NCBI GenBank assembly: GCA_045837725.1
Contig: JBEWZL010000087.1
Span: 62,001 to 126,000, forward strand
Length of the DNA: 64,000 nucleotides
Direction of reading: 5' to 3'
Source of the DNA: Vermamoeba vermiformis
Taxonomy: Eukaryota
Shown: one piece after another, positions 26,561-54,690 of the stretch
Numbering within the stretch: position 1 is the first letter of the stretch
Layout: every line of letters starts with the position of its first letter
Notes under the pieces: generated by a model
The model's database searches: none
Seen by the model: the letters and a program-made list of their open reading frames with translations, nothing else
Told to the model about the DNA's origin: nothing
Position numbers and translations under genes: made by a program

Positions 26561-29500
26561 TTACAGCCGAAGAGCCACGACAGACTTAGACCTTCTCCTA
26601 TTCTAGATCTTACTCGCGAATAGTAGATCTGTCAATCGTGATTCAAAAATATTGTGTTGACGAACAGTCTACTTCTTATAGGCCGGTCGTCGAGGATTAG
26701 GACCAAAGATAGCGTTCAAATCGATGTTCTTGCCGAGTTCTTTGCCAAAAATTTCGTCAGGATCTATCGTGGTCTGCATCTCCAAAGCTTTATACAAGTT
26801 TTCTTTTTGAGTCCAAGCGGGGACTGGCAAATCAATTTCACTATCCGAGTCGTCGTCGCTGCAGTAGTCCAAAATAGGGCATTGGCATTCAGGACTGTCC
26901 AAAAATCCGCGAGGTCGAAGAGGAGATCTTGGCGGTGAAGGCGAGTAGAGCATTGAAGCCGAGGGCTTAGGCGACAAGGTTGGTTGTGGTGAGTGTGAAG
27001 CCTTCGGTGATTGAGCAAGCTTGATAGGAATAAATGATTTGACGGATGTGGCTCGGATCGAAGAAGGTGACTGAGGAGGCGGCATCATTTGAGCATCGCG
27101 GGTCTGTGACTGTAAACTGCTTAATGAAGGAGGTGCCAGTGAAGCAGGACCGTTGGTAGAGGTTGAACTAGCAGTAGACTTAATGCTTGAAGGAGCTGAA
27201 ATATTGTTGGCGGAGTTCTCGCGGCTGATCGGCTTGAATCCGAAGTTGGAGGCAGATGGAAGAGGCTTAGATTCGACCACGGGAGTAGGAGCAGCAACTA
27301 CAGGTGTAGGAGCGACAACTGCAGGCTTAGGAGCAGGTGCGACGTGCTCGTCTGAGCCATCTCGAATAAACTTTCGAAGATCTGAAAATGGCTTGGGGAC
27401 TCCTGAAGGCTTAGGGATAGCATTGGAAGCACTCTTCAGGTCTACGCTTGAGGTAGTCTCCTTCTCCGAACCAGAGGACTCTGAGTCTTCGGGATCAGTT
27501 GGTGAAGCAGCGGATGTGCTTTGTGTTGACGCAACTTCGCCGGTCAATTGTGGAGGCTTCTTCAAGAAGGCGAGCAGTGAGAGTTTAGGACCTTGAGGGG
27601 CAGGAGCAGGGCCCTGAGGCTTAGGTGCGGCCTCTACAGCTTCGCGAGAAGCGGAATTGTGTTTCTTCTCTTCCAAAGACTGGATCAAGAAGCGCTTACG
27701 TCGAGATTGAGCGTCTTCTTCTTTAGCAGCCTCTTCAGCCTTCTTAGTCTCGTCTTCTTTAGTTTCTTCGACTTCCATTTTTTTGGCGGCAATCGAACTA
27801 GCCGTTTCAGTTTTCTTTACGGGCTCTTCGCGTGCCTTCTTCAAAGCTTCAACCTTGCTGACGGCTTGAGCGCGCTTCTTCTCCATTTCTTCGCGCTTCT
27901 TTTGCTCGAGCATTTGTCTGTTATCAGCGGCACGCTTCAGCTTGTCATTGACGTCCAAAGCCTTCGAGGAGTTGCTCGTGGCCAAGGCAGGCTTAGATTG
28001 AGAAGCAGCGAAGCCAACTTTCTTCTGCTTCTTCTCCGTCTTGCCAGAGACGTCCTCGCTTGATTCAGTGAGGGTCGAGGGGCCTTGAGAGGCTTCAGAT
28101 AGGGACTCGGCATCGCTGTCGATCTGCATGGCGTTCTCCACAGCAGGCTCAGCACGCGTCACTTCAGTGTTGAGAGGCTCAACGACGGAGGCAATAACGG
28201 TCGAGGAAATCTCAGCCTCTTCGTGCACAACAAAGTCTGCAGCCTTGGGCTTGATAACAACGTCAACTTCGTCTTGCGAGTCAGTGCTGATGCGAGGAGC
28301 AACTTTAGGCTTGCTGGGAGTCTTGGTGGTAATAATCTCGATGTTCTCTTCGAACTCGAGGGGCAGATCTGCCATGATAGCGTCATCAATGGCAGGAGTA
28401 GGAAGGGCGACTCTCTTGGCAGGAGTGGCAGTGCCAACAACATCGACGATAACCTCGTCTTCTTCGTCCTTCTTGATCTCTTCCTTCTCAACGGGCTTCT
28501 CTTCCTTGGCCTCGTCCATTTTGACGTCTTCCACGACGTGCTCGGCATCGCTCTTCTCGTTACTGAGCTTAGCCTTCTTGGTCTTGGGCTTAGGAACCTC
28601 TTCGGAAGCACTTTGAGCTTCACTTTCGTCTTCAGATTCAGCTGCACGAGCGCGTTTCTTGCCACGAGTAGCTGTCTTCTTGACGTAGGTCTTCTTGGTT
28701 CTGCCCTTCTTCTTAGGAGCAGGAGCTTCTTCTTCTGATTCGTTCTCAGCTTCTTCAGCAGCTTTCTTGGCCTTAGCTTCACGCTCTTTCTCCTCGCGTT
28801 TGCCTTGCTCACGTTCAAGTCGTTCTTTCTCCTCGTGTTCAGCCTTCGCTTTCTCGAGTTTGGCACGTTCTTTTTCTTCCTTCTCTAAGCGTTTCTTTTC
28901 CTTTGCTTCAGCGGCCAATCGTGCCTTCTCTGCGGCCTTTTCTTCTTCGAGCTTAGCTTGGCGCTCTTGCTCTTCCTTCTCGGCTTTTTCGCGCTCTTCA
29001 GCTTCACGAGCAGCACGTGCCTTCTTCTCGGCGATTGTTGCGGCTCTCTTGGCAGCAGCGGCAGCCTTCTTAGCGGCAGCAGTAGTGCGAGTGGCCTTTA
29101 AGCGACCGGCGCGACCTTGAGGCTTGTCTTCTTCTTTGTCGGAGACTTCGTCGTCCTCTTTCTTCTCTTCTTCGCTCTCTTCGACAACCTCTTCTTTCTT
29201 AGGTTGTTCAACGGGCTTTTCTTCGGCCTTCTCATCGACCTTCTCTTCGACCTTTTTCTTGCCGAATCGTTCTTCAATAATTTTTTCTTCCATCTTTTCG
29301 ACGGCCGCTTGAACCTTGCTCTTGCCTTTAGCGACTTTCTTGGTCTCCGCTGGCTTCTTGACTTGTTCGACAATTTTCTCTTCCACAATCTTGTTTTCAA
29401 CAGGCATTTGATTTTCCTTGTTAGCGCTGAGTACGGACGTGTTAATATAATAAATTTGGATCGAAAAGCAGATGATCGAAAAAGTCCAAAATTCAAAAGA

Positions 29501-30045
29501 AGATTTTGTGAAAATACTCCACTTACACGACCACTTCTTCTTGTTGTTGCTTAACGGCCGCACGAGTTCTAGGTCTGTAGGCAGATGCAGGAGTAGCGAC
29601 TAAAACCAAATCTGTCAGTAACTCCGTCGCTACACCTTCGCTTAAATAACTTACGTTGTCTGCTAAGAGCCACACGATCAGGAGCACTATAGTTAAATTC
29701 TTTCAAAGGTGTAAATAATTCTCGGGTCTGTTTTGCCTTTGTTTTCTTTTCGGCAAGGAAGATGCGTTCAATTGTGCTAATTAGACAAATTAATACGTTA
29801 GAATCTATTTATGCACGGTAAATAATATTATTTAGCAAATAGATTAATTAATAAAAATAATTAAAGAAAGATCGAGTTGATAAAATGTAAAAGTACCTTT
29901 CGAAAGCCGACTTGCAGTCCTTTGATACAGTCTCCAGCCAAGCGATATTTTCATTATATGTATTATCGAATTCTTGAAGGCGTAATTCAAATTGGCTCTC
30001 TACATTCGTTGTAATATACTGGAGGCTTTCTGAAAACGAATCCAT
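26561..30045 (-). CDS. INCENP: Inner centromere protein (chromosomal passenger complex scaffold)
   Basis: N-terminal helix '...NENIAWLETV', long E/K/R charged helices, S/P-rich linker and C-terminal IN-box 'DSEIDLPVPAWTQKENLYKALEMQTTIDPDEIFG...IDLNAIF'; short last exon 'RRSKSVVALRL*'. Start codon tentative. Confidence 0.85.
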
Positions 30046-31399: not shown

Positions 31400-34300
31400 T
31401 TATTTACTTGCCTCCGCTTCCTTTTTCTTTTTTCGCAGCTCTTCAAGATTCGCTTTTGGCCATTCATTGCTCCTATCATCAAAGAAATCAGCTTGCGGAG
31501 GGTTCAAGTAGCGTGTCTCGATCATCGGGTCAAGATCGATTGGAGCAATGCCCAAGTTGTTCTTGATTGTAACTGAGGCACCATTTTTCAACAATACTTG
31601 TCGATGTTGATATTGCTCCCAGGTCAAGGAGTCCTTCTGCAAGCAAATCATCAACGGCGTGTCTCCCGAATATGTTTGCTTGTTCACATCCGCTCCTTTA
31701 GAGATCAGGTATTCAGCAGATTCGCGGCTGTATTTCTTCGAGACTGAAAACGAAGAGAGCAGCGTATAACCACGAGCGTCGGCCAAGTTCACGTCGATTC
31801 CGCAACGCTCGATGAAGAACTTCGTCAGAGCTATGTGACAACTGACTCTATGGAAGATCTTTTGTAGCTGATTGTTACTCTTGGCGACGACGGCTTTGAC
31901 CTCTTCAGCGATGAAATCGAGGTTTTCTGGCGTCAGATATTTCTCAAGGATCGGCAAAAAGTCCTTATCTGGATCATTCGGTAAGTCTCCGTGTTACAAT
32001 TTTAAATGCTTTAGTTAGCCTTACCATCCATCATACGCGTAATTTCCTCAATAGTAGTGTCGAAAAAATAATGGACAAACGATCTGCCAAGCTTGTCTCT
32101 CAGCTTCAAATTCACGTTGCCATCGCGAAGTAAAGGCTTTAGGGACGGCAATGAATGTTGCAAGAGCATCATTAGGGGGGATTGATCGAGAAGGCCGCCT
32201 GGCTGATTAACATCAGCTCCGTTCTTCACGAGTGCGTCAATTATGGTCGAGGCGTAGCCAGACAAAAGTGCACGATGAAGCGGGGTCTCGTTCAACTTGT
32301 TGGGTTTGTTGACGCTCACGTATTTCGATAAGGGCTCGACTAATCGGGTGATTGTAGCAATTTTCTCCGTCAACAGAAGTGTATGAAGCATGGTGTTGCC
32401 TGCCTCGTCTATGAAGGTCGGATCCGCTCCTCGCGTAATCATCGATTTGATTTCATCGGTGGACAGCCCTGCAACAATCGCGAGTGATAATGGTGTCGCA
32501 ACACGTCCATATTCGTCGTAATCTACGCTATTAATGTTGGCCCCGTGAGCTAGAAGTGCGTCCAGTGACCCCGAAAAGTCGTTGCCGTTGGTGGCGCACA
32601 GAAGGTGCAGTGGCAATAAAGTGTTTCCAGCGAAGTTGGGATTAGCCCCGTGTTCCAAGGCAAAGGTGATTCGGGCAGTGTTAGAGGATTTCACTGCCTT
32701 GGTCAGCGGCGTGTACCCTGCTTTGTCCACGTGGTTGATGTCAACTTTGAACTTGTCCAAGATGCGCTCCAAGATAATCGAGTGTCGATCAATATCAGCA
32801 TTGGCTATCATCATATTGAACAGAGATGACCCGTCTTTGTCGTAGCTATTCGGGTCTTCACCAAATTTTTCAATGATGTAGTCGAGCGGACCGAAATCTT
32901 TTGGCGGCTCTCCAGAAGACACGTAACATGCTGCCACGCTGAAGAGCACCGGCTTGTTAGCGCTCTTGATTATATCCAAGGGTTCGTAGTTGTTGTTGGC
33001 AATAATGACGGTCCTGAGGAGTCGAACGTAGTCCACCGATTGGTAGCAGTCAACTTGAATGCTGCATCCGTTCTTGACCAGATCCAACCAAGTATCCCAG
33101 TTGTTTCTATCAAATGCCAATGTCGCAGCGTTCCATTTCTTGTCGCTTTCCAAGTTCCAATCGATGACGTCTTTGAACGGGCTCAAATCAATCACATTTC
33201 CATCTCGCGCGTAGTCGTGTAGGACAGTCTCGCCGGTATGATCTTTCGCCGAAAACAACGTCTTCAACACTTCATCGCTAACAGTTTCTTTAACCGCCTT
33301 GGTCGAGTCTATGTTCTTCAGCAGTTTTAAGAACGTTTGAGGGACTTTTTTCTTGATCTCCGGGTGTTGTCCAGCGTCTTTCAAATGATGAAGTGCCAAT
33401 GTGTAAGCGGAGTTATTGATGTATTCTATGAAGGCTCGCCAGTACTTGATTAAGCCATGGTTATACAACGTATTGATCATTTCATTGACGAGATTTGATC
33501 GGTTGAATTTTTGGGGTCGCTTGAACATGACAGTAGGTGCCAAATAAGGAAAGTGGAATGTAGGAGCTCTATTCAACAGATCTTTTTCGTACTCGGTGTT
33601 CGTATGAGTCTTCAATAGCTCTTCGACTTTCTCCGTCATACCTTTCTTAATGAGGAACGATAGCGGTGATTTACCAAATGCCGTTGCGTATTGAGCGTAA
33701 GTGATCGATGAAAATTCAAATATTTTGGACTTTAAATGGTGAAATCTGCAAGCGACTTCGACGCCAACGGATTTTCCAAGTGCCTCGAGTTCATTCCAGT
33801 GTTCATGAACGCTAGCCAATCTCGTCTTGTAGAGAATATAGGCCTTCTTCAATGACGGAAAAATACGTTTGATTATTGAGAAGTCGAAATTTCGGTCATT
33901 GATGCTGAATTCAAGTTCTCGTACTGACGGGTAAGTCGTTGTAACGTCATTGGAGTTGCGAAAATGAATCTTCCAAACAATCGAGTTTCAGGTTCTTAAC
34001 ATTAGGAAATAATATTAAGAATGATAATCGGTCAGCGGGTATTGCCAATGTTGTTATTTGTGGAAATTGTACTGCTGGCGGAGGAGCAATTTCGTCGTTG
34101 ACAGTGATGCTGTTTTCTGTGAATGTGAAGTCTCCAATACGACCGTTCGGAAGTCGGTCTATAACCAACGTATGTAAATTTGGTGAGGCGGTCACAGTGT
34201 TCTTGAACAATAAGAGCGAATCCGGCGTCTGCGGCAATAAAAGTGTATCTATTTTAAATCTCGCCAAGATGCCATTGCTGACAAGCTTGTGGTCCGTGCG

Positions 34301-34617
34301 TCCCAAATTCACTAAGAGCTGTTTTGAAAGGCTAGATTTTAACGCAGCTTGGTACCAAAACTTGCAAACGAAGATCAGCTCCTTCAACCAAGTAGCCAGG
34401 CCGAAATATTTAAAAATTTGATTGCCTAAGACTTCGAGAGGCAAGTCATAGATAGTTCGAGGAATCTCGTTGCTTTCTGAAATTATAAACATTAGCCTAA
34501 GGTGCATCCCGTTTCTTTATTTTAGAAAATTTACCTGTAAGTTTAATTTCTGCGTTAGAAGCCTAGGGAATATATTAGCAAATGCGATGATTATTAACTG
34601 ATAAAGAACCGTACCAT
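31400..34617 (-). CDS. F-box + LRR-like + ankyrin-repeat protein (paralog A); +1 frameshift near 33950-33985
   Basis: F-box 'YDLPLEVLGNQIFKYFGLATWLKELIFVCKFW'; ankyrin words GETVLH, GYTPL, GNTMLH, ETPLHRAL, GDTPL; ATG-only first coding exon at 34615-34617. Confidence 0.85.
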
Positions 34618-35195
34618 TTGCTTAGTGAAGTGATTTTTAAAATTGGGAGTCTTCAAGACTTTCTTAAAACGATCTGGCCCTACTACTAATCGCCTGAAAA
34701 GCAGTAATTAGCATAATTTGTTCTAAATAATTGCAAAATTTCCTTGTTGTAGGTATTTGAATTGTAGATTCAGAAAAAAAGGTGGCGGATTGAGGAAATT
34801 GTTGATCCTTACTGCGATGCTAATAGGCGAAACAGAAATTACAGGATTCAAGAGGATGGCCAACACTCTTTATTGTTCTTAAGTGTCTGGTTGTTAAAAA
34901 AAAGAAAGATTTTTTTGAATTTCTTTTCGTTCAATCAGCGAAGCCAAAAACAGACCTGGATCTACTTCCTAATTTGTATCTCGTAACAGCTTAATATTGT
35001 ATGTAAACAGTGCGGCGGATTGCAATAACGGATCTTGATTTTCATATTTCGAAGTATTTTCAAGAATAACTAAAGAAAGAATGCAAGATTACTTTGATAA
35101 AATTGCCCATTGGGCCTAAATTTGATAACTACTTAATTTATTGCAAATAATTTTATGGTTCAATTAATAATATTATTTCAGGATAGAAAGAAATT

Positions 35196-38100
35196 ATGGA
35201 ACAGTTGCCGATCGAGGTCTTGGCAAATCATTTATTCAAGTACTTTACCTTCTCCGAATGGATTCGAACTCTAGTTCGTGTATGCAAACTTTGGCAGCAA
35301 GCAGCTATTTCCTCGAACGCATCCAAGCAGTTGGTCGTGGATTTGGATGCTGATTACGGTTGTATTGCAACTATGGCAAAATATAGAGTAGATACATTAA
35401 TATTATCATCTGTGGGTTATTCGCGTACTTTGTTCGGACGTATTCTGGAAGCCTCGCCAAAACTCAATACTTTGGTTGTTGTCGGATCCCTCTCCCATTA
35501 CGACATAGGTACACTTTCAACTGTCAATAAGCCTAAAAGAATATTTCCGCATATTACAACATTATCGCTCCATCAAGATCACTTGGCATTGTTGCAACTT
35601 TTTCCGAACGTTACCAGACTGCGGATCGAAGAGTACATGGCAGACGAAGATTTACTAGATTTAGATCAATCAAAAATAGAAGTATTTGCCAAGGTCAAAG
35701 AATTGGAAATCACACAAGACAGTTTTGGTGGATGGGAAGGGATACAACGGCAATTCCCAAATTTAGAAACTCTCTACGTAACGGTCCTAGATTACGCGAA
35801 GAACTCGAAGATTATAGAGGAAGGCAAGAAGTTAGGCATTAAAGTCTTCTGCGACAACATGCACTTGATCAAGACCGCTTGGAACTCGCCGAATATTACG
35901 TATCATTTGTATGCTTTCCAACACCGAAAAACACCGTTGGCTTATCCAGTGACAATCGCTAATGCTGAATGCACCGTCGAACAACTTGAGCAAATGATGG
36001 CAAAGACTTCACCTGCTTACGAAAAAGAATTGGCAGACAGAGTCGCGGAGTTTCATATTCCAGCTAGAATTATGAATATAAGCGTTGATCCTGGATCTCT
36101 TGGTATCTTCTCTACTATTAGAAAGCCTGGATTTATTATGCCATTATACGTGAATAAGTACCTGGATTTTTGGACCGCTTTCGAAGCCGCTGTCCAGGCG
36201 AATCAGACAGATCTTGCATTGGAGCTATCGAAAGAATTATTGAACCATTTAGATAATAGCCAGCGACACCAATATATCCATTCCAATATTGAACTTTTTG
36301 GAACAAATTGCCGACACACAACGATTTCTGGATGCGGTCGGATCTGAAGCAGTGAAGAAAATAATGTCAGTGACTGACGAGCAAGGTTATAATATTATTG
36401 CAAGATGGGCGAAGTCTACCGGCTTCAATATCAACTGGAAGCCTATTGATGAATATGTTGATTGGAATACGAAGGTCAAACCAGGCCCAGAACGAGAACC
36501 TAAAATTGAAAATTTAGCAACAGTGGCATTTACTGAAGAAAAGTTTGAGAAGTGGAAGTACCTAGTCAACGAAAAGAAGCTTGATATAGAATTTGATCTT
36601 TTAACGGATGCCGATTTGCGATCTTTTATCCGAAGGGATCTTCTGGAAGAAATTTCAATTTTGGCAACAAACAAGGAGAAGCTCAGACGTATTATATTTA
36701 TAGCAACGGATGTATTTCGAAACGAAGATTTGGATTCGTTCAAAAGACTTATTGCCAAATTTGGAAATGAACAACTGTCTGAATGTTACAACGGCGAATA
36801 TTTGCTACAACATCTCGTGCTGAGTTCTTATCATAACGACGAATTATTGACATATTTAGTCGAAGAACAGAAACTCGATATCAACTATATCGATAAGAGC
36901 GGAAAAACTCCGTTGACAAATTTCCTTACGCTAGGCTTGCAAGAATCCGAGGATGTTTCACTGGTCCAGACGATGCTAGATTTAGGCGCAGATCCAAATC
37001 TCGCTGGAGATACAATGCTGCCGCTATTTTTAGCCCTGACATATGATCTTCGTGAAAGCCTAGAACTTATGGCGGCCCTGATCGATGCTGGAGCGGACGT
37101 TAACGCCGTAGATTTTGACAAAAATGGAAGGCGAGCGACACCACTGTCAATTGCTGTATCGATGGGAGCCTCAGTGGCAATTATTGAAAATCTCATTGCT
37201 CATGGATCTGACACCAAATTTGTTGATGACGCTGGCAACACATTGCTTCACACTCTTTTATTGGCCAATGAACTTGAAGACATCAATAACTTATTGCCTA
37301 TTTTGGTAAAGCACGTGGACATCAATCAGCCCAATCTCCTTGGCGAGACACCACTTCACCGCGCTCTGTTGTCCGGTTACGACGTGACATTGATAGCCAA
37401 ATTAATCGAGTACGGAGCAGATGTCAATCAGCGCGGTGGACTGCTCACGATACCTCCCTTGGTAATGACGCTTAATTACTTCCCGACGATGAAAGTACTG
37501 CTCAACGCCAAGAACATTGACATCAAGGCTAAGAATAGACTTGGCGAATCAATGTTTTATACCATTTGTAGACGTGATTGCACATCGGATTTTGTCGACA
37601 TTCATGGATTGTTGGCAGGTAAGTTTGAAAAAAAGTGATGGTGATCCTTGACCGATAAAATCTAATTACGTGCAATAGACAAAGAATTCCAAGAAATCGC
37701 TGCAAGATTTGCAACGCCGGAGAATATTGAATTCATTGCCAGTGAAGTGAAGAGATATATTAACGACTACCCACAAAATTTTAGCAACATCTTTTCGCTG
37801 TGCACGCGCGAGATGCCTTTGATAAAATTCTTGACCGAAACAGTCGGACTTGATGTCAACACGAAGACAGCAGTTGGCAAGACATTATTGTCAAGCATTT
37901 CCATCAACACAAGTTGTTCCTACGAAGTTGCGGAATATCTCATTCAAAAAGGCGCGGACGTCAATGCACAAGATATCTACGGAGATACTCCGCTGTTGAC
38001 ATCTGTCAGAATCGCATCTATGACACGTGAACAGTACCGATACCGACACTTGTTGCTGAAACATGGAGCATCTGTGACACTCAAAAACAATTTGGGCCTG

Positions 38101-38280
38101 GCACCTATTGACATCGATCCAATGATAGAGACACGTTACAAACAAGAAGAACAATCCATGGCATATTACGATGATAGGACTGTAGCGGATCTGCTCACCC
38201 CAAGTTTGGCAGAACTGCGCAAGAAGAGACAAAATTCTTCTAGAAGCAATGTCGACGCCAATAATGGACATACCAATTAA
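35196..38280 (+). CDS. F-box + LRR-like + ankyrin-repeat protein (paralog B); +1 frameshift near 36250-36290
   Basis: F-box 'MEQLPIEVLANHLFKYFTFSEWIRTLVRVCKLW'; ankyrin region collinear with paralog A (ETPLHRALLSGY, KNNLG.APID.DPMIETRY); intron ~37619-37677 at the equivalent position. Confidence 0.85.
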
Positions 38281-38456
38281 ATTTGATTGTGTTCCGTGGC
38301 AATTGTTCGAATAAACTTTTAGCGACCCGATTCGATTTCCATGGGTGAACTTGCCTAAAAAGGATAAAATGTCCGAGCCGAGTTACCAAGTACGTTCAAG
38401 CGGAGAATATACCCGTTGTAAAGCTTCAGTCAGAAATACGGTGCAAAAAGCAGTAT

Positions 38457-41400
38457 TTAATAGTTGTCATTTGCATCGTTTTCATCTTCTTCAATAATAC
38501 CTTCAAACGCTTCATCGAGTTCCTTTTCAGTTATTTCACGATGAAAATCGATCCGATGTGACGAACAGAATACAATTTTTGAGAGCAGTTCTGTCACTGA
38601 TTCTGGCTTGTCAATACACACTTCGATGTACCGTGCAGTAGTGTTCTAACACATGAAAGGTTAGTAAGTGATGCTAAATTAGCATAAGAAGGATTTGCTC
38701 GTACATTCAAGGTGCCGCAAAAACACTTGTCTGTTTGATTCGGGACTGGTGCTCAATTTTGTTCCGACAAACAAAACTTGAAAATTTTCCGGATGCAACT
38801 GCGGATCCAACACGTGCTGGAACGATGATATGTCATCGACGTTGAAAAATAAAGCTACCAAGCCCGACACTGGTGCAAGCAGCCCATTGAACGCGTCAAG
38901 CCCCTAGAAATAATTATTAAATTAATTTTAATATTAAAATCGTCGTTAATCACTGCTCATTTTCCACCTCTCCGATAAAGTAGGTCATATGCACTTTGTC
39001 TTCATAGAGTATTTCAATATGGTAACCACTAAAGATGTGTTCTTGTTGGTCAGGGATGGAGCGACCTTTGATCTTGTTCTGTTGAGGTCAAAAAAAAAGT
39101 TTTTAGCTTAGCGCAACAATATTGTACCATACAATATTATTAACATTACGTACTGGTATTGCGTCAAGCAAAGTAGTTTTTCCGACGTTGTGAGCGCCAG
39201 CGAAGTACACCCATTCGTATTGAGGGGAGGCAAATCGTTCTTCACGAGTTCTCCACCGCCATGTCACATTCGTGTGCAAGCCTTCTGATGCTATTAATAG
39301 ATCAGAAATTAATTAATACCACCAATACCAAAATTACTTCTAATCGTTTGTACTTACTTGATTTGGTATCTTCGAGCACTTGCTTATACCGAGCAATAAA
39401 TGGATCGGTTGTGTCGAGTTCAGGTGCTTCTGGATAATCAATCCACGTCTCTTCATGAACGAATTTTGGCTCGTTTGGCGGAATTTGGTACCTCAAGTAG
39501 CCTAATATTTTTGAAACGAGTCGATCGACGTTCATATAAGTCGAAGGACACACGTCAAAGTAGTTCTCAGGCTATGAGAATAACAAAAAATTCAGAGACT
39601 GATTTACTGGAAAATAAATAAATTAATAAATAATACTTACTGGAGTATAGAACACCTGGCGCGTATATTTGCCATCGGGAATGATGCCTACAACTACCTT
39701 TGAGATAGCTGGAGTAATCTTGTTATTCGAAGAAAAGGATTTGTAGTCAGCAACGGAGAACGTTTCAACGATCATATTCTGGTCCTCTGAAAGAAATCCA
39801 GCAAAAAGGAGCTGTAGGAGGTCATTAATTAGGGTTTAATCGATTAGATCTACTTACGTCAAAAATCGGGTCGACAGGTTTCACCTCCAAAATTAACTGA
39901 ATAATTGCTTTGTTCTCGTACAAAATATAGGTACTGAGCTAAGTATAATATTATTAGTAAAATAAGGTTGAAATGAATTTTGTACGTACTTTATCGGTTT
40001 CTGATGAAGCACATGGACCATGGATCTGCGCCAAAGAATTATTATAATTAGAATTTCTAAGAAAATAAATAAATACATGATATTCGTACCTGTATCGATT
40101 TGATAAGCGCCTTCGTTTCCTTTTCGGGACCATTGAAAGCAATTCGAAAACAGTAGTCACGACTGAGGTGCCTCAACTCCTTCTTTTTCATGAACCGCCA
40201 ATTGACGTCTCTAATTTGAAATTATTATTAGACTAAAATTTCTTGTTAATGATGGATCCTACTCTTTTAGCGGCTGATCTGGATCGAACTTATAAAAATA
40301 ATTTTGTGTACTAATGTCCTGTTGAAACTTATTTTTGGCTGATTCGTCTATTTAAAGTTAGCATATTAGCGCTGTAGGTATTGTTCGTTCTTACTGGACT
40401 GCAATTCGTCGAACAGTTTTTCGATCAGCATTGCTTGGTGCATTTCCTCATTGATTAGCTTGTGGGATAAATAGCTCAAAAGCTTTGATATGAGTTGATC
40501 GATGTTTTTGCCAGTCTTAGCGGATACCTCCAAGTATCTCGGTACGGCCTAAAAAGAAATTTCAAATTTTATTAATTTGTACAATCACTGCGTCGGTCGT
40601 TTATTAAGCATTAAAATAAAATAGCTATCTCGAACTGTATAAAATGCATATTAATCATCTTTATAGGGCCTACCTTGCATGGAATAACGTCGAGTTGGCG
40701 GATCGCGTCATCATCGGCCTTTGTACCGACGATTATAAAGAGACCACGTGACTCTTGTCCAAACTTTTCAATTTTAGTAAAACTAGCTCGATTTGATATG
40801 TCAACGAGGACTATTTTTAGGTCTGCTCGATAATATTCCTCGTTGGGAGCTGTCATGGGATCCTCGCTTAAGCTGAGACTTTCGAGATCTACAGCGGTGA
40901 AACGCAATTCTACGAGCAAATTATTGCAAAATATGAAAGCAGAGCCCTAGTGACTAATATTAGAATCACTTTGCGATAAGTTTTTCGGATCCGCACCTCA
41001 TCTTCGGATTCCAATGGCTGATCTCGACCCTATTTAAGCGAGGTGAGCGTAGATTGACAATAAAAATAGAATCTTACGCATAATGCGCGCAATAGTGATG
41101 TTTTACCGCACAAGGCGTTCCCAGTAATGACAAACCTGAAAAATCAAATCTGGTTTTTGTGTTAACGTTGGTTTCTGCTCGCTTCCAAGATACTTCTCTA
41201 ATATATATATTTAGATTAATTAGAATATCAAGGGATCTTCTTACTTAAGCGGCTGGATTTGAGCATTTACAGCCTGCCTCATTTTTTGAAATTTAAGCAC
41301 CGAATTTTTCCCTAGTAATGTATATTAGAGATTAGGTTAAGGAATAATTTCATAATATATTGTTATTTGATTTGTAAATTTCTGTAATTTCTTACAAGCC

Positions 41401-41594
41401 TTTTCCTCGTCGCTCAGCAAATCACGCAACCGATAGAGGTCAGAAATATCGTATCGTTTGGTTTCAATATTGAATAATTTGCACACTCGTTTTAAATATT
41501 GGAATCGCCAGTGAGTGAACAAATAGCCCAAGATCTGGAAAAGGATCTCTGGTGGAATGCTTTCAACCAAAGAAGGAGGGTTATTATCTTGCAT
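38457..41594 (-). CDS. F-box protein fused to three tandem Ras-like (degenerate) GTPase domains, many exons
   Basis: F-box 'ESIPPEILFQILGYL...LKRVCKLF'; domain 1 GNALCGKTS / VGTKAD / EVSAKTG; domain 2 'RIAFNGPEKETK...FSVADYKSF...VVVG...FDVCP'; domain 3 GAHNVGKTT / FNVDDISSF / VGTK / YIEV; an exon at ~40263-40347 links domains 1 and 2 in frame. Confidence 0.75.
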
Positions 41595-41787
41595 GTGTGT
41601 TGCGTATCTTATTTACATAATTAAAAAAAAGAATAAATCTCCTCGAGATAATCAGAACAAATCGGAATTCTATTTCAACAGTTGAACCCTAATCTTGGTT
41701 GGTGATGTAACCGTTGAATATTAAATCAGATCAGCAAAATTAAATCAGCTCACAAGCAATGAAAGAATATTAACACGCCTTTTAAGT

Positions 41788-44180
41788 TTATTTCATTTTG
41801 AAGTCAGCTTGTACATCCGGGATCTCATTATTCTCGCGTTTTTCTACTTTAATAATGAGCTGTTCAGTAAAATCTTTAGGAGGTGGCTTATAATCGACAG
41901 GCTTCTCCTTGTTCGATGACAAACTCAGATCTACGGTAGGCATTCGCTTCAAATCGAAAATTTCATAATAAAAGCGAGAGCTCCACTCATAAATAAATGC
42001 CGTGTATCGTCTAATTAATAATAAATCGTTAGAATGAACTCAAAAAAAGTTTTTTTAAGGACAGATCTGCTTACGATTCCACCAGCGGTGAGGATCCTTT
42101 AATAGTTGGCTTAAGCAGCATACCATCGTCGTTCCATTCGTAAATAAATGCTTTCTCTGTCATTAAAGTTAATACTATTTCTTATTATTATGAAATTATT
42201 GCGCCTGTACGTACTTAAGCTGGTCATGAAAGGTGCTGCATTCCAACCATCGTAGTACTTCGGATTCAAGCCTGTTTTGCCCGACAAGTAGTTCAACAGA
42301 TTGTACGCGACAACTGAAGACTGACGCAAGGCCGTGCCTGCTGTCGTGTGCATTGGGAACGCGCATGAACCGAGCGCATAGACGTTCTTGTGGTCTTTGT
42401 GTTGTAGCGTGAATCGGTTGATATCAACGAGTCCTGATTTGTTGGCCAATGAACTGGCTTTTACGTAGTCATCTGGAACGGCAGACGGCGTGAAGTGCAT
42501 TGCAACGAACGGCACGGTCACTTCAGCTTTGCTTCCTGGCTGCGTGAAAATAGCTTTACGGCTGTCGTGCAAAAACAAGATTAACGAACTGTTTCTCGAA
42601 TGAGCTCAAGTAATAACTTACTCTATATCACTCACAGCTACTAAGTTGTGTCTTGGGAACAAATTAATGCGATTTTGCTTGAGCAAGAGTTTGAGCTTAT
42701 CCCCTAACAAATCAACGTCGAACAAAGGAGGTTTGTCGCCAGGGAAGAACAAATCAATCGTGTAGTTGTATCGCAACTTCATTTGCTTCATTTTGTCGTG
42801 CAACATGAATAAGACCTGACAACAACAAATAAGTATTGCAAAAAATATGTATGCCGGTTCGATTTTTGTTGTCAAGTTTGGACTTACGGAGTATAAGATC
42901 TCAGGCTCTGCAACGTTTGTGCTGGATTCTAATGCGAAGACAATACGACCTTTGGTGGTTTCTGAAAGGTTTTGGGTCAGTACTCGTTCGACATCTCCAG
43001 AGCTGTCGTAGAAATGTGCGGATGTGACGGACTCAAGATCTCTTCTAAGTTCAATTTCATTTAACGGGTTTTCCTCTGGACTTTTAAGTCTTTGTTTCGT
43101 CATAACGCGCGAGTATTGTTGCACGAGGTATCGAAGTCGATTGTCGCGCACAATTGGATCTTCGATGCCAGCTACGTTTTTGAATGACTTATTCAAGCCA
43201 GTAGCAACAATCATCGCATCATAATGGACGGTCCTGTTAACTATAAGATGTTGCACACGTTAGTATTAGTCTTCTGTAAGTCTGATATGTCGCTGATCTG
43301 CTTAGATCACGTAGATCTCGCTAGCACTTACGAACAGTTTTAACGTAGTTCTTGGTCGGATGGAACTCTGCTACTCTGTCTTCAATGAGAGTTACACCAG
43401 GAGGAACAATGTCCTTCAATAACTTGGTTGAAGTCTTTCTGTGTTTGACCTTGTTGAATCCGAGCAACGGGAACAAAGTTTCATTGTAATGCTGGAGGAT
43501 AACGAAGCGCTATGTTAGTACGCACTTTCTACTATATGTGTAATATAATGAAGCAAATGTTGCTAGCAAGTGAAGCAAAATAAGCAAAAAATTTATCGAG
43601 TTACTCACCACTTTGCTGTGGTCAATAATACCAATGTCAAGGTCCATTTCCTTTGCCATGCCTACTAAGTCATTGGCGACGGCAAGTCCTCCAGCACCTA
43701 ATACAATTTTTAGCAAAAAATGCCGATTTAATGCATAGTTTGTCATTCAGATCTCGATCGACGATCTGTTTCGGTACTCACCGGCTCCAACAATTAAAAC
43801 TCTGTTTCGCGATTCAATGGGTTTAGGCAACACTTTGGTCAATATTTCTGGTGGTACTCTTGCTAGATCTGCTTCAGTTTTGACTACCTCGACAACAGAT
43901 TCTTTTCTGATAGTGTAATCGTATTTAGATAACTCCTTGTCTGTCTCTGCTTTTTTGTCCGGCACTTTATCGCTTTTATATCGTACTTGCAAAGCGAATA
44001 TTTGCTTGGTTTTTGCGGCTGACAATAATAAAAATTAATTTAATTATTTACAATAGAGATCGCGCAGTATTGGCATGTTTTCTCGTGAAAATTTAATTGC
44101 TCATTTAAGAGAATATTACAAAAATTATTTGAGCTGAAAATACCTTTGACCGCGCTGACTGCCTGCCTAATCCAACTCAT
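41788..44180 (-). CDS. Sulfide:quinone oxidoreductase-like flavoprotein, probably mitochondrial, catalytic Cys absent
   Basis: Basic presequence-like 'MSWIRQAVSAVK...', Rossmann 'VLIVGAG/AGGLAVA', 'YDAMIVATG', 'GLVDINRFTLQHKDHKNVYALG', 'YDG...P'. Confidence 0.85.
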
Positions 44181-44743: not shown

Positions 44744-47700
44744 ATGTCTGCCTTTATCAACTTGTTTGAAACTGAAAGTAAGCGAGTCAAAGGTCTTGCA
44801 TTTCACCCTAGCAGACCTTGGATCCTCGCCTCGTTGCACACTGGTTTGATCCAGCTTTGGGACTACCGGATTAAAACTTTGGTTGATCAATTCAACGAGC
44901 ACGATGGTAATAATTTGAATTTAGCTGTATAATAGTGATACAACGAATCATACGGCATTATTGAATATTTTAATTAATTTTATATAATTTTGTAGGACCT
45001 GTAAGAGGCATTGCTTTTCATCCGACTCAACCCATCTTCGTCTCTGGTGGTGATGATTTCAAAATTAAAGTGTGGAATTATAAAGAAAGACGATGCTTAT
45101 TTACTTTGCTCGGACACACTGACTACGTGCGCACCGTTCAGTTCCACAAAGAGTACCCTTGGATTTTGACTGCATCCGATGATCAATCTATTAGGTAATA
45201 CTCATACGTTTGCTAGACTACAATATTATCATATTTTCAATATTTCATATTTATTTAACGCTATTGTAGAATTTGGAACTGGCAATCTCGTCAATGCATC
45301 TGCGTGCTTACTGGCCACAGCCATTACGTTATGTGCGCTCAATTCCATCCTACTGAAGATCTCGTTGTTTCAGCCAGTCTTGACTTGACTGTTCGTGTTT
45401 GGGATATTAGTGGTAAGTACAGACTGATATTTTCAAAACTATTGGTGAATCTGCATTTTGAAGCAGCAAATATTTTATTCAACGCTCTTTTACCGTACAA
45501 ATCAATATTATGCCCACAAGAGATGATTTTTCGTATTATTTGAATTTTGAAAAATATTCCGACGTTGCATTGCAAATACTCATTTTGTTACCCTTAGCTC
45601 TGCGTAAGAAAAATATTGCTCCGAACACTCAGCCCGAGGACGCCGGTCAAAGACTTCAAAACGAATTGTTCGGCAGCACTGATGTCTTCGTCAAGTTTGT
45701 TCTTGAAGGACACGATCGTGGTGTTAACTGGGCCAGCTTCCATCCGACTCAACCTCTCATTATCTCCGGTGCTGATGACAGACAGATCAAGTTGTGGCGT
45801 ATGAACGGTAAGTCACGTTATAACTAGACTCTAGAGTTTGCCTAACATTTGTGCCCGTAATTGATCCGATCTTGATCCGGGTTCACAATACTAGTTTTTA
45901 ACGACGTCAGCAAATTACCAACGATTTTATTAAATTTATTTCATTTATTAATTGGATTTTTCACGTAGATACCAAGGCTTGGGAAGTCGACACTTTCAGA
46001 GGTCACTACAACAACATTTCTTGCTGTATCTTCCACCCTCGTGCCGATTTGGTTATTTCCGACTCAGAAGACAAGTCCGTGCGTGTTTGGGACTTGTCTA
46101 AGCGCACTAACTTGCTCACTTACCGTCGTGAGAATGACCGATTCTGGATCCTGTCTCAACACCCTGAGTACGTTGACGCGTGAACTTTATGTTATAACTA
46201 ATTATTAATAACGATTGCTTGAGTAGATTGAACTTGTTTGCAGCTGGTCACGACAGTGGTTTGATTATTTTCAAATTGGAGAAGGAACGTCCGACTTACT
46301 TCTCGCAAAAGAACGAGCTACTGTTCTACATTAAGGACAAGTACTTGCGCATCTACGAGTACGCTTCTGCTCGTGACATGCCCATCTTGTCAATCACCAA
46401 GCGACCAGTCGCTCCTAGATTCGTTCACTACAACCCTGCTGAGCGTGCTGTGATCGTGTTCTACGAATTGGACAATAACGTCAACTCGTACGATTACTAC
46501 CAAATCCCCAAGAACAGCGATGCCTCCGTTGATCCTCGTCGCTCATCTTGCGTCTCCGTCGCTTGGGTTGCTCGTGACCGCTTTGCCGTTCTTGAGAAGA
46601 GCAACATCGTAAGCATTTTTATTGCTAACAAACGAAAGTACACAGCTTCAATTTCTAACGTACGTATTTTGTGCAGCTCGTGTTGAAGAATTTGCAGAAT
46701 GAAACTACCAAGAGCATTCAATTGGACATGTCTTTCGATATGTTGTTGCCTGCTTATCCTGGTGCTTTGATCTTGCGCAGCGAGGACAGATTGGTGTTGT
46801 ACGACATTCACCAGTTCCGTTCTTTGGCTGAAGTCAGCTTGCACAACGTCAAGTTCGTGTCATGGTCCCCGAAGGAGAAGGACGGCCTTGTTGCCTTCTT
46901 GGGCCGCGATTGTAAGTAGTCTTCATTCTTTTATTTTGGCGCGTGCTGACTACTCCCGACAGCCATCGTTATTGCCAACAAGCGCCTCGAAGTCTTGTGC
47001 TCTGTTCGCGAGACTATGCGCATCAAGGGTGGTGCTTGGAGCGAGAACGAAGTGTTCATTTACAACACTACCAGCCACATCAAGTACTTGTTGCCCAACG
47101 GGTATGTTACTCCGAGCTTTAGAGTCTCGTCGATTAATCGCTAATTATATTCGTTACATTAGTGACGGTGGTATCATCCGTACTTTGGACATTCCTATTT
47201 ACATCACGGCTGTTCGTGGCAACAAGATTCACTGCTTGGACCGTGAGATCCGCAACAGATCTATCACCATTGACACGACTGAGTTCACGTTCAAACAAGC
47301 CTTGATCAACAACAACTTCAACGAGGTCATGAAGATGGTTCGCAACTCGAAGCTGATGGGTCAAGCTATCATTTCCTACTTGCAAAAGAAAGGCCACCCC
47401 GAGATTGCCTTGCACTTTGTTCAAGACGAGAAGACTCGCTTCAGCTTGGCTCTTGAATGCGGAAACATTGACATTGCTCTCGATGCTGCCAAGAAGTTGG
47501 ACGATAAAGACATCTGGCAACGATTGGGCGAGGAAGCTTTGCGCCAAGGCAACCACCAAGTCGTCGAGTTGGCCTACCAAAAGACCAAGAACTTTGAGCG
47601 CTTGTCGTTCTTGTACTTGATCACTGGTAACGTAGAGAACTTGCGCACGATGGCCAAGATTGCTCAAAAGAGAAACGACGTTATGGGTCGCTTCCAAACT

Positions 47701-49313
47701 GCCCTCTTGTTGGGTGACGTCGCTGAACGAATCAAGGTGCTCGAGGAGACTGGTCAAGTCCAATTGGCTTATATGACTGCTCGCTCTCACGGCCTCGAAG
47801 AAGATGCCACGAGATTGTGGGAGAAGATTCAACGTGTCCACCAAAAGAAGTTGGCAGCTGAAGGAGTCGAGAACGCTGATCAGCAAGTGCTCCCTCCTCC
47901 CGCTCTCGACTTGTCACGCTCCAAGTTGCTCTTCCCTGCTGTGCCCATCTTGAAGCTTGCTGACAGCAACTGGCCGTTGTTGACTGTTACCAAGGGTCCT
48001 TACGACGTCTCATTCCGCCCTGCTCCTGCTGCTCGCGGACCTACCGCCAGTGAGGCTCCCAAGACTAGCGTTGGTAGATATACCGAAGATGTTGACGTTG
48101 GTGAGGCCTCTGGCTGGGGTGATGACCTTGACGTCGCTCTTGATGGTGGCGAAGGCAAGCCTCGTGTTCCTGAAGACGAGCCTGTTGGTGCCGAACCCGA
48201 CCTTGGCGGTGGTGATGACTCCGCTTGGGGAGGCGATGACTTGTCTGACGTGCTCGGAGACATCAAGATCTCGACTGGTCCCGCCACCAAGGGCAGATCT
48301 AACGCTGTTGCTGTCTTCCCCAACGAGGGCATGACTGCTGCTCAAGCTTGGACTATGGCTTCACAGTTGCCTGGAGATCACGCCTCTGCTGGTGGCATGA
48401 GCATTTCTCAACTGTTGTCCACTCAAATTGGTGCCGTCAACTTCGCTCCTTTCACTACTCACGTTGCTACTTCACACCGTGCAACTCGCACTTGGTTGCC
48501 TTTGTCACCTGGATCTGCACCGATCTGCACTTACGGTCCTCGAAGAACAGACGATGGACCTCGTTCATTGCCATTGAGCATTCACGATATTAGTAGCTTG
48601 ACTGCTAAGCTCCAATTGGGCTACAAGGCAACTACCGGTGCTAAATTGCCCGAGGCCATTGGCTACTTCGAGAGCATTTTGGCTGAAGTGCCTTTTGTTG
48701 TCGTTTCAACTCGTGCTGAAGCTCAAGAAGTCAGAGAGTTGGTTGGCATCTGCCGCGAATACTTGGTCGGTCTCAAGTGTGAGATGAAACGAAAGGAATT
48801 GTTGGCCAAGGAAGCTGAGAGTAAGTCGAGATCTGGACTTAAGTTAGTTTACAAATACTAATTTTATTTATTATAGATGCTATTAGAATCGCAGAGCTTG
48901 CTGCTTACTTCACACACTGCAATTTGGAGCCGCCTCACTTGCAATTGACTTTGAGATCTGCTATGGCGATCTGCGTCAAGCTAAAGAACTTGCAGAGCGC
49001 TGCTTCTTTTGCACGAAGATTGATCGATCTAGCGCCTCCTCAAAACGTTGTTGAGCAAGCACAGAAAGTTTTGATTTTCTGCGAGCAAAACAAGTTTGTT
49101 GAAGAGAAGCCGATGAAGTATGACGAACGAAACCCGTTCGTTATTTGCGGCAGCACCTTCACGCCTATTTACAAGGGCAGTCCTCTAGTACGTTGCACAT
49201 ATTGCAGTGCACCATACTTGCCTGAATTCCAAGGCAAACAGTGCCAGATCTGCACGATCTCGGAGATCGGACGTGAAAACTGCACCGGTCTGCAAGTCAT
49301 GCAGAATAAGTAA
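44744..49313 (+). CDS. COPA: Coatomer subunit alpha
   Basis: '[35 protein letters not shown]', WD40 repeats, '[21 protein letters not shown]', '[11 protein letters not shown]', C-terminal Cys-rich 'NPFVICG...CTYC...CQIC'. Confidence 0.98.
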
Positions 49314-51995: not shown

Positions 51996-54690
51996 ATGAA
52001 GGCATTGATACTAATAACCGCGTAAGTATTTACTTGACACATATTACTTGGATGCTAATTTTAACCCAACGTTTCTAGATTTTATTGTGCTTTCGGGGCT
52101 GCATCTGTGTTGGATGCGCGCATTCCGGTAATTACTACATTCACCGGAGGACGTCCTGCAGTACTACCCGATTCTTCTGATCCAACGTATCTTTGGCCTA
52201 AAGCAGTAGCGGATGAACTTCCAACTCTTGCATCGATGGAGTCTGATATGACTTCTAAAGCTACTCATACCGCTGTATCTAGCGGCAAATGGTCTGCGAC
52301 ATCTACTTGGGGCGGCTCATCGATCCCTGGCGCTGGTTCAGTCGTTCGTATCCCATCTAACATCGTGGTTGTCTACGATGTTGACAGCGATGTTGCATTG
52401 AAAGACGTGCTTGTTCAAGGCACTCTTCGTTGGGCACGTGATCAACGTACCAAGATGCGCGTCGAAACTATCTTCACGACCAACACAAGCTTTCTGGACA
52501 TGGGCACGACTGCTGATCCGATCCCTGAATCCGGCATTGCTGGCACTCCTCAAGCACATATCATCTACGAAGGTGCCAATCCTACGACTACTATGCGATT
52601 AGGCCTCGTTACATCTGGATCCGTTCGTATTTGTGGTGCTGCTAAGCCGGAAAAGCTTGAAGTATCAGTGGATCCACGTGCTGGTGACACAACAATTCAG
52701 CTCAATGGTGACGTTAGCAAATGGCAAGTTGGCGACAAAATCATCGTAGTTGCTATGAGCGATGGAGGAAAGGCCACTTCAGACCCTCAGTACACTGGCC
52801 CTACGAGCTACTTTGACGCTACTGGCCAGGCTCCAGAAAACAGCCCTGAAGGTCACAGAATCGGTGACTGGGCGTTTGTTGGCTACAAGAAGTCCAACGA
52901 TGAAGTTAGAACTATTACTGCTATCAATGGCAACACTATTACCTTGGATACTGCTCTTCAATATGACCACATCTCCAGATCCGCTACTCTTCCTCGTGGA
53001 CAAAGCGTCAAGATTACAGCGATTGTTGCCAGTCTTTCTCGCTCAATCCGCTTCGAATCCGCTACTCCCAAGGGCTACCGTGGTCACAACATGTTCATGC
53101 ACAGCGATGACGTTGTTGTGCGTTGGGCTGAAGCTTTGAACATGGGCAGAACTCGTCAAGACCCTTCACTTTACGCCACTAACAACGACTTGCTGGACAA
53201 AGAAGGCGGTACCTCAGTGATGGATTCTAACAACGTCCGCGGTCGCTATCCTTGGCACACTCATTTGGCCGGTCCTAGCTTTGCTCGCAAGATGGTGGTA
53301 CGTGCAAACTCTAACGCATCACTTGATAGGTTTCTTAATCGATTTTGCTCGCAGATCTTTGAAGGCCTCTCAGCTTGGGCACCTTCGGACGAGGTCCCTC
53401 AACCTGGTTGGGCCATTACTCAGCACGGAGGCCGTGCTGCCATCGAGAAGTGCGTTGTGTACAATGTCCGAGGTGCTGGAATTGTGTCTGAACTTGGTGA
53501 CGAGATTGGGCAGTGGTTGCACAACGTTGTTTGCTGGGTTCGTGGAGACGGCTTCAGATATGGCTGGGGACGTCGTGGCGAACGAAAAATCAATCATCAT
53601 GGCTCTGCTGGCGTGGCTTATGAAAATCAAGCTCGTCAAATTCTGCAAAAATGGAACTGGGCTACGTCTTCGAACATTGGCTGGTCGTTCTTGCAACAGA
53701 TCAGTGATTCTTTGACACGTGTGCCCGATCACCGCGCTCTTCGATTCTTTGATCCTTGGGTTGGCGGCGGAGCTCCCGGCATTGGCGACATGAACGAGGG
53801 CTATGGAGTTGAACAGGCTCAAATCCCTGAGTGGCAAGACAACGTTTGTGTCGGGGTTGGCGATGGCTTTTTCGTTGCCCACAGACAATACACCAACCGC
53901 CAAGATCAATTGCCTATGATTGCTAAGAACTACCCTGTTGGGTGAGCCTTTTTTTTAAATTTTTTTGGTGGTTTTTTTTTTTTTTTTGGTGGGGGAAAGG
54001 GGGGTTTTTTTGGGATTTTTTTTTTTGTTTTTTTTTTTTTTTTGGGTTTTTTTTTTTGGGGGGGGGGGCAAATTTGGCGACAACATCATTCAGCCTCGTC
54101 CTTCGCCGTACAAGAACGACAACGAAGTTAACTTCAACCCTGCTACTTTTACTATGATCAACATGACGAACAATGTCTTAGACGTCAATGCTAATAGAGT
54201 CTATCCGCTTGCTTTTCAAGGCACAATTTCTGACGGATTCGGTACGCGACCTTACCCTCATTGGTCCTGGTTCGACGCTCCTGCTGACGAAGGCGTCCGT
54301 GAGTGGCAGAGAAGCACCGAAATTCCAGCGAGAATAGTTGAGCGTAATGGATGCTTCTATGACGATTCTGAAGGCGAATGGAAATCGCGGATGTACTTCA
54401 TCGACCACAACAGATTGACTGGAGATTATCTGATCATTCCTATCGACATTACGTTGAAGAATTTCAATACGACCTTCCTTGAAGCCAATAAGATCGTTCC
54501 TCAGCCTCCTACATTGCCTCTGCTCCCCGAATCCATTTCTGACGATGCAACCGTTCCGCCAGATAATTATCTCTCTCCAGATAGCCCTAATAATCCAACT
54601 AATGTTCCCTCAGCTGTGAGTAATGCATACAGATTTTTGTTCTCTTACGTGTCTATTGTTGCAGTTGTCATCATGTCTTTGTATTTTTAG
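51996..54690 (+). CDS. G8-domain, beta-helix-type secreted/membrane-anchored protein; interrupted by low-complexity tract
   Basis: Signal peptide 'MKALILITA/FYCAFG'; G8 'SGKWSATSTWGGSSIPGAGSVVRIP', 'WQVGDKIIV', 'GRYPWHTH'; P-rich stalk and C-terminal hydrophobic tail. Confidence 0.8.
53942..54069. other. T/G low-complexity tract, likely sequencing/assembly artifact
   Basis: Runs of T and G with almost no A/C, abruptly within otherwise clean coding sequence, with a frame change across it. Confidence 0.75.

Follow-up and report, generated by a model that had tools for sequence, protein, structure and literature searches.

Within a 64,000-nucleotide stretch of DNA from Vermamoeba vermiformis (contig JBEWZL010000087.1 of assembly GCA_045837725.1, positions 62,001 to 126,000 of the forward strand; hereafter the window, in whose own coordinates all positions are given), we characterised a multi-exon gene on the minus strand that extends from a start ATG at 41594 to a stop codon at 38459-38457. 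On balance, we favour the reading that this is one gene, encoding an F-box-like domain followed by three Rab-derived units in graded states of decay, the product of which, judging from its domain content, would likely function as a substrate receptor of an SCF (Skp1-Cul1-F-box) ubiquitin ligase. The gene is a real, constrained member of a lineage-restricted family, and it brings two known themes together in a new combination.

Splicing and constraint of the gene

The evidence that the coding segments belong to one transcript comes from contigs of two runs (X1 and X2) of a relative that is 95-99% identical to the window; the library type is unrecorded, and we took these contigs to be RNA-derived because introns are absent from them. 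They were compared with a manual splice model, made by chaining canonical GT-AG introns, which comprises 16 exons, 15 introns and 701 residues (Table 1). Exact GT-AG joints were identified in the X1 and X2 contigs for 11 of the 15 model introns, including 40347->40395 and 40210->40263, which flank the linker exon between units 1 and 2 exactly as modelled. Within unit 2, three of the four internal introns were seen as joints, the one at 39640-39572 being unlisted, and in unit 3 the joints are 39290->39358, 39077->39154, 38902->38967 and 38645->38710. Two introns are placed otherwise in the relative, namely those between exons 2 and 3 and between exons 15 and 16, and the intron between exons 11 and 12 went unseen, one X2 joint row having been dropped at skipped repeat letters (the only repeat named is 39608-39641). 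The introns of the window, which has a G+C content of about 40%, are short (46-125 nucleotides, nt) and of the GT-AG type, with CTAAC-like branch sites. An automatic dynamic-programming splice model, which agreed on most exons, was rejected, several of its exons in units 1 and 3 being contradicted by the RNA joints.

Several exons are linked within single contigs. X2 record 10, 588 nt in length, reaches from exon 5 by way of exons 6 and 7 into exon 8 and beyond; exons 12, 13 and 14 are contiguous in X2 record 9, as are exons 2 to 5 in X1 record 7. By overlap, the contigs cover exons 2-11 in one chain and exons 12-16 in another. Units 1, 2 and 3 share one spliced mRNA in the relative, and this refutes a split into two genes near 40366. 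An initial annotation of the window, made from its letters, had proposed that scattered open reading frames (ORFs) splice into a single frame through a linker exon, and had suggested looking for transcripts across 40210-40395. The relative's contigs span that interval and connect the linker exon (40347-40263) to both of its neighbours; the proposal of a single frame fares less well, since the frame of the window copy is broken when the splice sites seen in RNA are applied to it.

Raw RNA-Seq reads from organism B also cross the last intron (3 reads in run X5 and 1 read in run X7), the exonic letters there being diverged. All organism B reads on the stretch are partial (X5, n=13; X7, n=26), and beyond the joint at the last intron they yield short matches at 39892-39929 and 38342-38371. 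Separately, X1 holds a second joint, 40548->40753, which skips 204 nt and is carried by one contig at depth 4 with a side of 27. Its donor lies inside exon 5, and splicing there would shorten the exon by 79 nt with a change of frame. A minor isoform or an assembly artefact may account for the joint.

The pattern of substitution points to selection on the encoded protein. Between the window and the X1/X2 contigs there are 25 single-letter differences, 21 of them in the model frame, 2 outside the coding sequence and 2 in the frame-disturbed stretch of exon 3. The 21 in-frame substitutions divide into 14 synonymous and 7 non-synonymous changes over 445 and 1658 sites, respectively, giving a ratio of non-synonymous to synonymous rates (dN/dS) of 0.13. 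With two junction letters added the counts become 14 versus 9 and the ratio 0.17, and the binomial P against neutrality lies between 9e-6 and 4e-5. Synonymous changes occur in each of unit 1, the linker exon (two in exon 7), unit 2 and unit 3, and since the substitutions are distributed in this way over the units and the linker, all parts of the gene are constrained.

The F-box-like exon and the three units

The initial annotation had placed an F-box at the N-terminus, and exon 1 indeed passes the cut-off of the Pfam F-box-like family PF12937 (24.9 bits, the cut-off being 24.3; E 1.8e-5), matching over residues 11-42 and profile positions 2-32 of 47. Its signature reads IPPEIL...VCKLF, the usual type being LPxEIL...VCKxW. 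A single-sequence AlphaFold2 model of exon 1, with a predicted local distance difference test score (pLDDT) of 64.3, has helices at residues 15-28, 31-40 and 50-65. When exon 1 was searched against PDB sequences, nothing was found at E <= 0.3, and FBXO3 appeared at E 0.34 without any independently passing stretch. No FYVE domain was matched in exon 1, in which just 10 residues precede the F-box.

By its sequence, unit 1 is clearly Rab-derived. Smith-Waterman comparison of unit 1 with a Rab domain gave a z-score of 17.9, which none of 500 shuffles reached, and a profile made from the three Rab domains of P0004, one of the database matches to exon 5 described below, was colinear with model residues 88-233 (profile positions 3-161 of 172, 18.3 bits); the same profile did not find units 2 and 3. 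Exon 5 gave five matches among PDB sequences, in which the four G-protein rows are all Rabs (weak, E 0.6-1.1) and the third-ranked row is an Sm-like protein. Unit 1 keeps the P-loop (G1, GNALCGKT), TKAD (a form of G4) and SAK (G5), and it reads D-L-E-S at the place of DxxGQ, so that the switch-II glycine and the catalytic glutamine are lost. Folded alone by AlphaFold2 from a 3-row alignment, exon 5 reached a pLDDT of 39, and the model was unusable.

Unit 3 is a probable G domain. Its P-loop, GAHNVGKT, is intact, TKLS stands in place of NKxD, SAK is absent, and the switch-II glycine is kept without the Asp or the Gln. In the ESM Atlas, the ten best named clusters for exon 15 are all small GTPases (Ras 0.93, RagA 0.91; recognition 3522), and exon 13 has weak P-loop matches in Pfam. 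Unit 2, by comparison of its motifs, is a candidate pseudo-GTPase in which every nucleotide-binding motif is gone: the place of the P-loop reads GPEKETK, and there is no NKxD, no SAK and nothing like DxxGQ. The C-terminal tail of the protein is acidic; no Cys lies close to its end, and CaaX, CC and CxC are all absent. The motif reading of the initial annotation holds throughout, in that units 1 and 3 have GxxxxGK[ST], unit 2 has lost it, DxxGQ is absent from all units, and there is no CaaX.

The same can be said of the closing helices, the first two of which had been described as alike. The C-terminal third of unit 2 compares with that of unit 1 at z 13.1, a value that 0 of 1000 shuffles reached, and 33% of 52 aligned residues are identical; the C-terminal third of unit 3 compares with unit 1 at z 5.9 (2 of 1000 shuffles) and with unit 2 at z 4.1 (3 of 1000). 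The N-terminal two thirds of unit 2 show a weak likeness to unit 3 (z 2.6, 22 of 1000 shuffles).

The positions of the introns tell a similar story. A phase-0 intron lies exactly 7 residues past the GK[ST] position in units 1, 2 and 3, and another lies 4, 3 and 5 residues, respectively, before the Y[LFI][ED]V strand of the three units. Units 1 and 2 have a further phase-0 intron in common, 18 and 19 residues past the P-loop, as well as a phase-2 intron directly before the [EDN]V[SNT]W[KR] lead-in, a motif that in unit 3 lies inside exon 13. These comparisons support an origin of the three tandem units, each of about 200 residues, by triplication of one intron-containing Rab-like unit. Shared intron positions are what tandem duplication predicts, and they are the main reason for which we accept unit 2 as a decayed G-like domain. 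In the initial annotation all three units had been taken for small-GTPase folds; the first of these stands by sequence and the third is probable, while the second is reached only through its last third, its intron positions and its equal length. The proposed architecture of an F-box followed by three tandem G-like units is thus largely upheld, with a weaker basis for the fold of units 2 and 3.

Table 1 Exons of the F-box/triple-unit gene, in window coordinates
Feature	Position	Strand	Content and splice evidence
Exon 1	41396..41594	-	Start codon and F-box-like domain; GTAAGA donor
Exon 2	41245..41311	-	Short spacer between F-box and unit 1; GT-AG splice to exon 1 phase-compatible; 3' end joined to 41197 in X1 record 7
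Exon 3 (relative's form)	41078..41197	-	EVSWK lead-in, beta1, unit 1 P-loop (codons 41122-41099)
Exon 3 (in-frame window model)	starts 41135	-	Alternative acceptor
Exons 4-6	41029-40997, 40946-40674, 40548-40395	-	Rest of unit 1: YYRAD, TKAD, SAK, closing helix; all three introns seen as joints
Exon 7	40263..40347	-	Linker exon between units 1 and 2; joints on both sides
Exons 8-12	40210-40090, 40025-39990, 39938-39858, 39811-39641, 39571-39358	-	Unit 2 and linker to unit 3
Exons 13-16	39290-39154, 39078-38968, 38903-38705 (relative), 38645-38457	-	Unit 3: P-loop GAHNVGKT, TKLS replacing NKxD, no SAK, acidic tail

The frame of the window copy and rival readings of the protein

A number of observations weigh against the reading of one gene for an F-box protein with three Rab-derived units. 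At the N-terminal end, exon 1 and the junction between exons 1 and 2 are without RNA, there being no coverage above 41341 (bins 41342-41800 are empty). The F-box score clears its cut-off by 0.6 bits only, and a Foldseek search of the PDB with the exon 1 model (pLDDT 64) gave 0 matches at E <= 0.001 and 17 at E <= 10, none of them an F-box protein. For the units, exon 5 alone scored 14.5 bits against Pfam Ras (PF00071), below the cut-off of 21.6, and an exon-by-exon comparison with Pfam Ras found no match in units 2 and 3. Direct matching to a Rab domain likewise fails for unit 2 (z 0.4) and unit 3 (z 0.6), the N-terminal two thirds of unit 2 give z 0.5 against unit 1 and z -0.5 against Rab, and the ESM Atlas does not recognise exon 11 of unit 2. 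Finally, when the relative's splice sites are applied to the window, the frame is shifted from about codon 100 and meets a stop at the exon 15/16 junction.

This last point concerns the window copy itself, and can be traced to single bases. At 41165 and again at 41137 the relative is one base short of the window (X1, depth 6.5), and its exon 15 ends at donor 38704, one base shorter than that of the window. In the window the acceptor at 41198/41197 is intact, and exon 3 stays in frame for its first 11 codons, EVSWK among them, the slip coming after these. For the window to have an open frame of 701 residues, splicing would have to use 41136/41135 as acceptor and 38726 as donor, neither of which was seen in RNA, and the transcribed form in the relative has about 730 residues. 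At the last junction, organism B carries an in-frame 27-letter replacement, the length of which is as in the relative and not as in the window. As a control for the quality of the assembly, we used the alpha-COP (coatomer alpha) gene, which lies on the plus strand of the window at 44765-49301 and has introns of 43-161 nt. A tblastn comparison with the homologue P0005 yielded 16 rows, of which 8 are colinear blocks over 44765-49301 and the other 8 are off-diagonal WD40-repeat matches. All frame changes between the colinear blocks fall at gaps of 43-161 nt, and no abutting frameshift occurs in about 3.7 kb of coding sequence, which argues that the assembly is not generally indel-ridden.

Tentatively, then, the window copy may be a recently frame-broken allele or pseudogene, with the functional copy represented by that of the relative (another strain, haplotype or paralog). 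The lesions would be the three single bases that the window has in excess of the transcribed form (at 41165, at 41137 and just before 38704), the ancestral acceptor and the conserved lead-in are still intact upstream of the slip, organism B RNA shares the shorter, in-frame last junction, and the alpha-COP coding sequence nearby has no comparable abutting frameshifts. Three disabling indels are nevertheless odd beside strongly purifying substitutions (14 synonymous versus 7-9 non-synonymous), and two of the three adjoin substitutions, as consensus errors at heterozygous sites do; that all three extra bases are consensus errors is possible, if short of likely. Each lesion also has an in-frame alternative. 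In a further reading the window copy is functional and alternatively spliced, its acceptor at 41136/41135 dropping 20 codons of exon 3 and its donor at 38726 dropping 7 codons of exon 15. The inserted A made a TTTTTCAG/G acceptor at 41136/41135, a TTAAC branch-like site 25 nt upstream of it is likewise specific to the window, and the resulting junction is in frame, exon 3 measuring 58 nt against 118 nt in the relative, 60 nt apart. We consider alternative splicing unlikely all the same: neither junction is found in RNA, the intact ancestral acceptor lies upstream and would normally be used first, the 20 skipped residues hold the lead-in that all three units have conserved, GTGTTT makes a weak donor at 38726, and in-frame rescues were deliberately sought, so that some were to be expected.

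Turning to the protein, in the SCF substrate receptor that we favour the Rab-derived array would take the place of the usual WD40 or leucine-rich repeat (LRR) domains as a partner-binding or regulatory module, by analogy with Rab40 and RhoBTB, which couple a G domain to cullin ligases. Rab40 combines a Rab with a SOCS box and Cul5, and RhoBTB a Rho with a BTB domain and Cul3, each setting a GTPase domain inside a cullin-RING adaptor; they differ from the V. vermiformis protein in that they dock via the SOCS box or BTB and not via an F-box, have one G domain, placed N-terminal to that docking module, and belong to animal or amoebozoan families. Unit 1 would probably bind guanine nucleotide and be incapable of normal hydrolysis, unit 3 may bind the phosphate of a nucleotide alone, and unit 2 would be nucleotide-free. 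It is a long shot that these states make the protein an SCF "Rab trap" in a free-living protist, with one locked, GTP-bound-looking unit and two nucleotide-free look-alikes as decoys; such a trap would catch and degrade Rab regulators (GTPase-activating proteins, guanine nucleotide exchange factors, effectors) or the Rab-targeting effectors of intracellular bacteria, a role that we regard as highly speculative. The initial annotation had likewise suggested an SCF adaptor whose pseudo-GTPase domains would serve as baits for GTPase regulators or pathogen effectors, a proposal drawn from domain content. F-box proteins are commonly auto-ubiquitinated. The F-box might mainly destabilise the protein itself, which would then be a Rab-like scaffold with rapid turnover, as suggested for Trypanosoma brucei TbFRP, whose F-box is tied by the authors to the protein's rapid proteolysis (PMC3593210). 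This self-turnover seems to us rather improbable as the main role of the F-box; it is compatible with the recruitment of substrates and does not exclude it. Still less probable is a division into two genes, an F-box-only exon 1 and a separate triple G-like array starting at the ATG of exon 2. The missing RNA at the exon 1-exon 2 join and an in-frame ATG at 41282 in exon 2 would allow it, but the intergenic gap would be about 60 nt, compared with about 180-190 nt for the flanking spacers (41594-41788 and 38457-38280), exons 1 and 2 meet at a canonical donor (GTAAGA) and a canonical acceptor that match in phase and keep the frame open, and it would be unusual for an F-box to stand alone with no partner domain. 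No further same-strand coding sequence was found between the two exons.

Relatives, known systems and the surrounding genes

The gene family to which this F-box/triple-unit gene belongs looks very rare, just two fragmentary relatives having been found in 1.84 billion representative proteins. Four proteins in that collection matched exon 5 at E <= 1e-3. Two of these, with identities of 46-49%, are ORF fragments of 93 residues found in Logan or ENA assemblies, and both end at the same DV[IL]PCK exon boundary. A third, P0001, is a spurious match to a bacterial repeat protein, and the fourth, P0004, has canonical Rab domains in tandem and lacks an F-box. P0004 is a predicted protein of 665 residues with three complete Rab domains and one partial domain, and could be either a true multi-Rab protein or a gene model in which tandem genes were fused. 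A word-indexed search with exon 5 for longer proteins returned 114 candidates, none at E <= 1e-3, and searches for related loci gave 72 pattern matches in JGI metagenome contigs and 57 in IMG/VR viral contigs, with 0 confirmed in each. No paralogs of the gene were found within the window. Judged by the identity of its alpha-COP, the host lineage is poorly sampled: in a collection of 5.8 billion proteins, identity to the window alpha-COP is at most about 48% where the alignment covers at least 96% of the query, with short partial alignments reaching up to 66%.

Each of the two themes has counterparts elsewhere. Motif-less pseudoGTPase domains stand in tandem beside a nucleotide-binding G domain in p190RhoGAP, where they serve as structural or interaction modules; that protein differs in its FF and RhoGAP context, is metazoan and has no ubiquitin-ligase module. 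Three G domains in one polypeptide occur in GIMAP8, an arrangement that its authors call highly unusual (PMC4201521), although GIMAP8 belongs to the vertebrate AIG1/GIMAP family, has no F-box, and is described there with all three domains as potential GTP binders. A tandem triplicated, divergent G domain is also described for Euglena Arl13Triple (PMC8358228). As to the second theme, TbFRP of T. brucei (Euglenozoa) combines FYVE, F-box and Ras-like GTPase in one protein (PMC3593210); like the V. vermiformis protein it has its F-box N-terminal to a Ras-superfamily G domain, and for it a link to ubiquitin-dependent turnover was proposed, whereas it differs in its FYVE domain and in having one GTPase domain only, the V. 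vermiformis protein having no room for FYVE and carrying three Rab-derived units, two of them degenerate. Vargova et al. 2021 (PMC8358228) describe ARF-family GTPases fused to F-box or BTB, as well as a Rab-BTB-BACK-Arf protein, and in these fusions, as would be the case here, small GTPases have repeatedly been recruited into ubiquitin-ligase architectures. The G domains there are ARF- or Arl13-derived, as opposed to the Rab-like unit 1 of the present protein (YYRAD, LV-DIS, and Rabs as the only G-protein matches in the PDB), and the main text of that paper does not report triplication together with an F-box among its ARF-family proteins. In Herman et al. 2021, on Naegleria (PMC8296547), an F-box review is cited among the small-GTPase references, and RhoBTB also figures in the reference list.

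Our literature searches yielded no F-box protein that also carries Rab-like or pseudo-GTPase domains in tandem; supplementary lists of published F-box-GTPase proteins may hold a closer match. The initial annotation had known of no described protein with this architecture. That statement is too broad as regards its parts, since F-box-GTPase fusions and triple G-domain proteins have been published, but it stands for an F-box joined to three Rab-derived units in graded decay, a combination of which we found no report.

As for the surroundings of the gene, the last ORF of the upstream, same-strand gene ends at 41788, and a convergent ankyrin-repeat gene ends at 38280; Rfam found nothing credible over 38000-42000. 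Two divergent, paralogous genes lie beside it at 31400-34516 (minus strand) and 35187-38280 (plus strand), each starting with an F-box-type motif and each having ankyrin repeats and a shared C-terminal motif, and together with the target gene they form a local F-box gene cluster. The first of the two scores 20.6 bits against the F-box-like family, below the cut-off of 24.3, and the N-terminus of the plus-strand gene matches no Pfam family. Just downstream of the stop codon, an 87-nt piece at 38342-38428 is present in all four runs (X1, X2, X5 and X7). Its flanks are unmatched in X1 and X2 (loose ends at 38342 and 38428), and the loose ends in X5 and X7 lie at 38342 (both) and 38371 (X7); it has no Pfam or Rfam match and looks like a conserved exon of another transcript. 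Further away, a large single ORF on the plus strand at 52065-53945 contains a G8 domain (PF10162, E 1.8e-11), and a plus-strand gene at 54995-56483 begins, by eye, in the manner of an F-box, with no Pfam F-box match and with leucine-rich-repeat matches that are all below the Pfam cut-offs. The minus strand at 26669-29599 holds an uninterrupted ORF of 976 residues, of low complexity and rich in Lys, Glu and Ala, which is overlapped by long antisense ORFs, as is typical of biased composition.

If docking to Skp1-Cul1 holds true, the V. vermiformis protein would add one more independent case of a small-GTPase domain within a cullin ligase to those of Rab40, RhoBTB, TRIM23, TbFRP and the ARF-F-box or ARF-BTB fusions. 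One polypeptide would then present a natural series of G domains, from nucleotide-binding and catalytically dead, through P-loop-only, to fully dead, and this series would be useful for asking how pseudo-GTPases arise and what they bind. The find flags an under-explored proteome.

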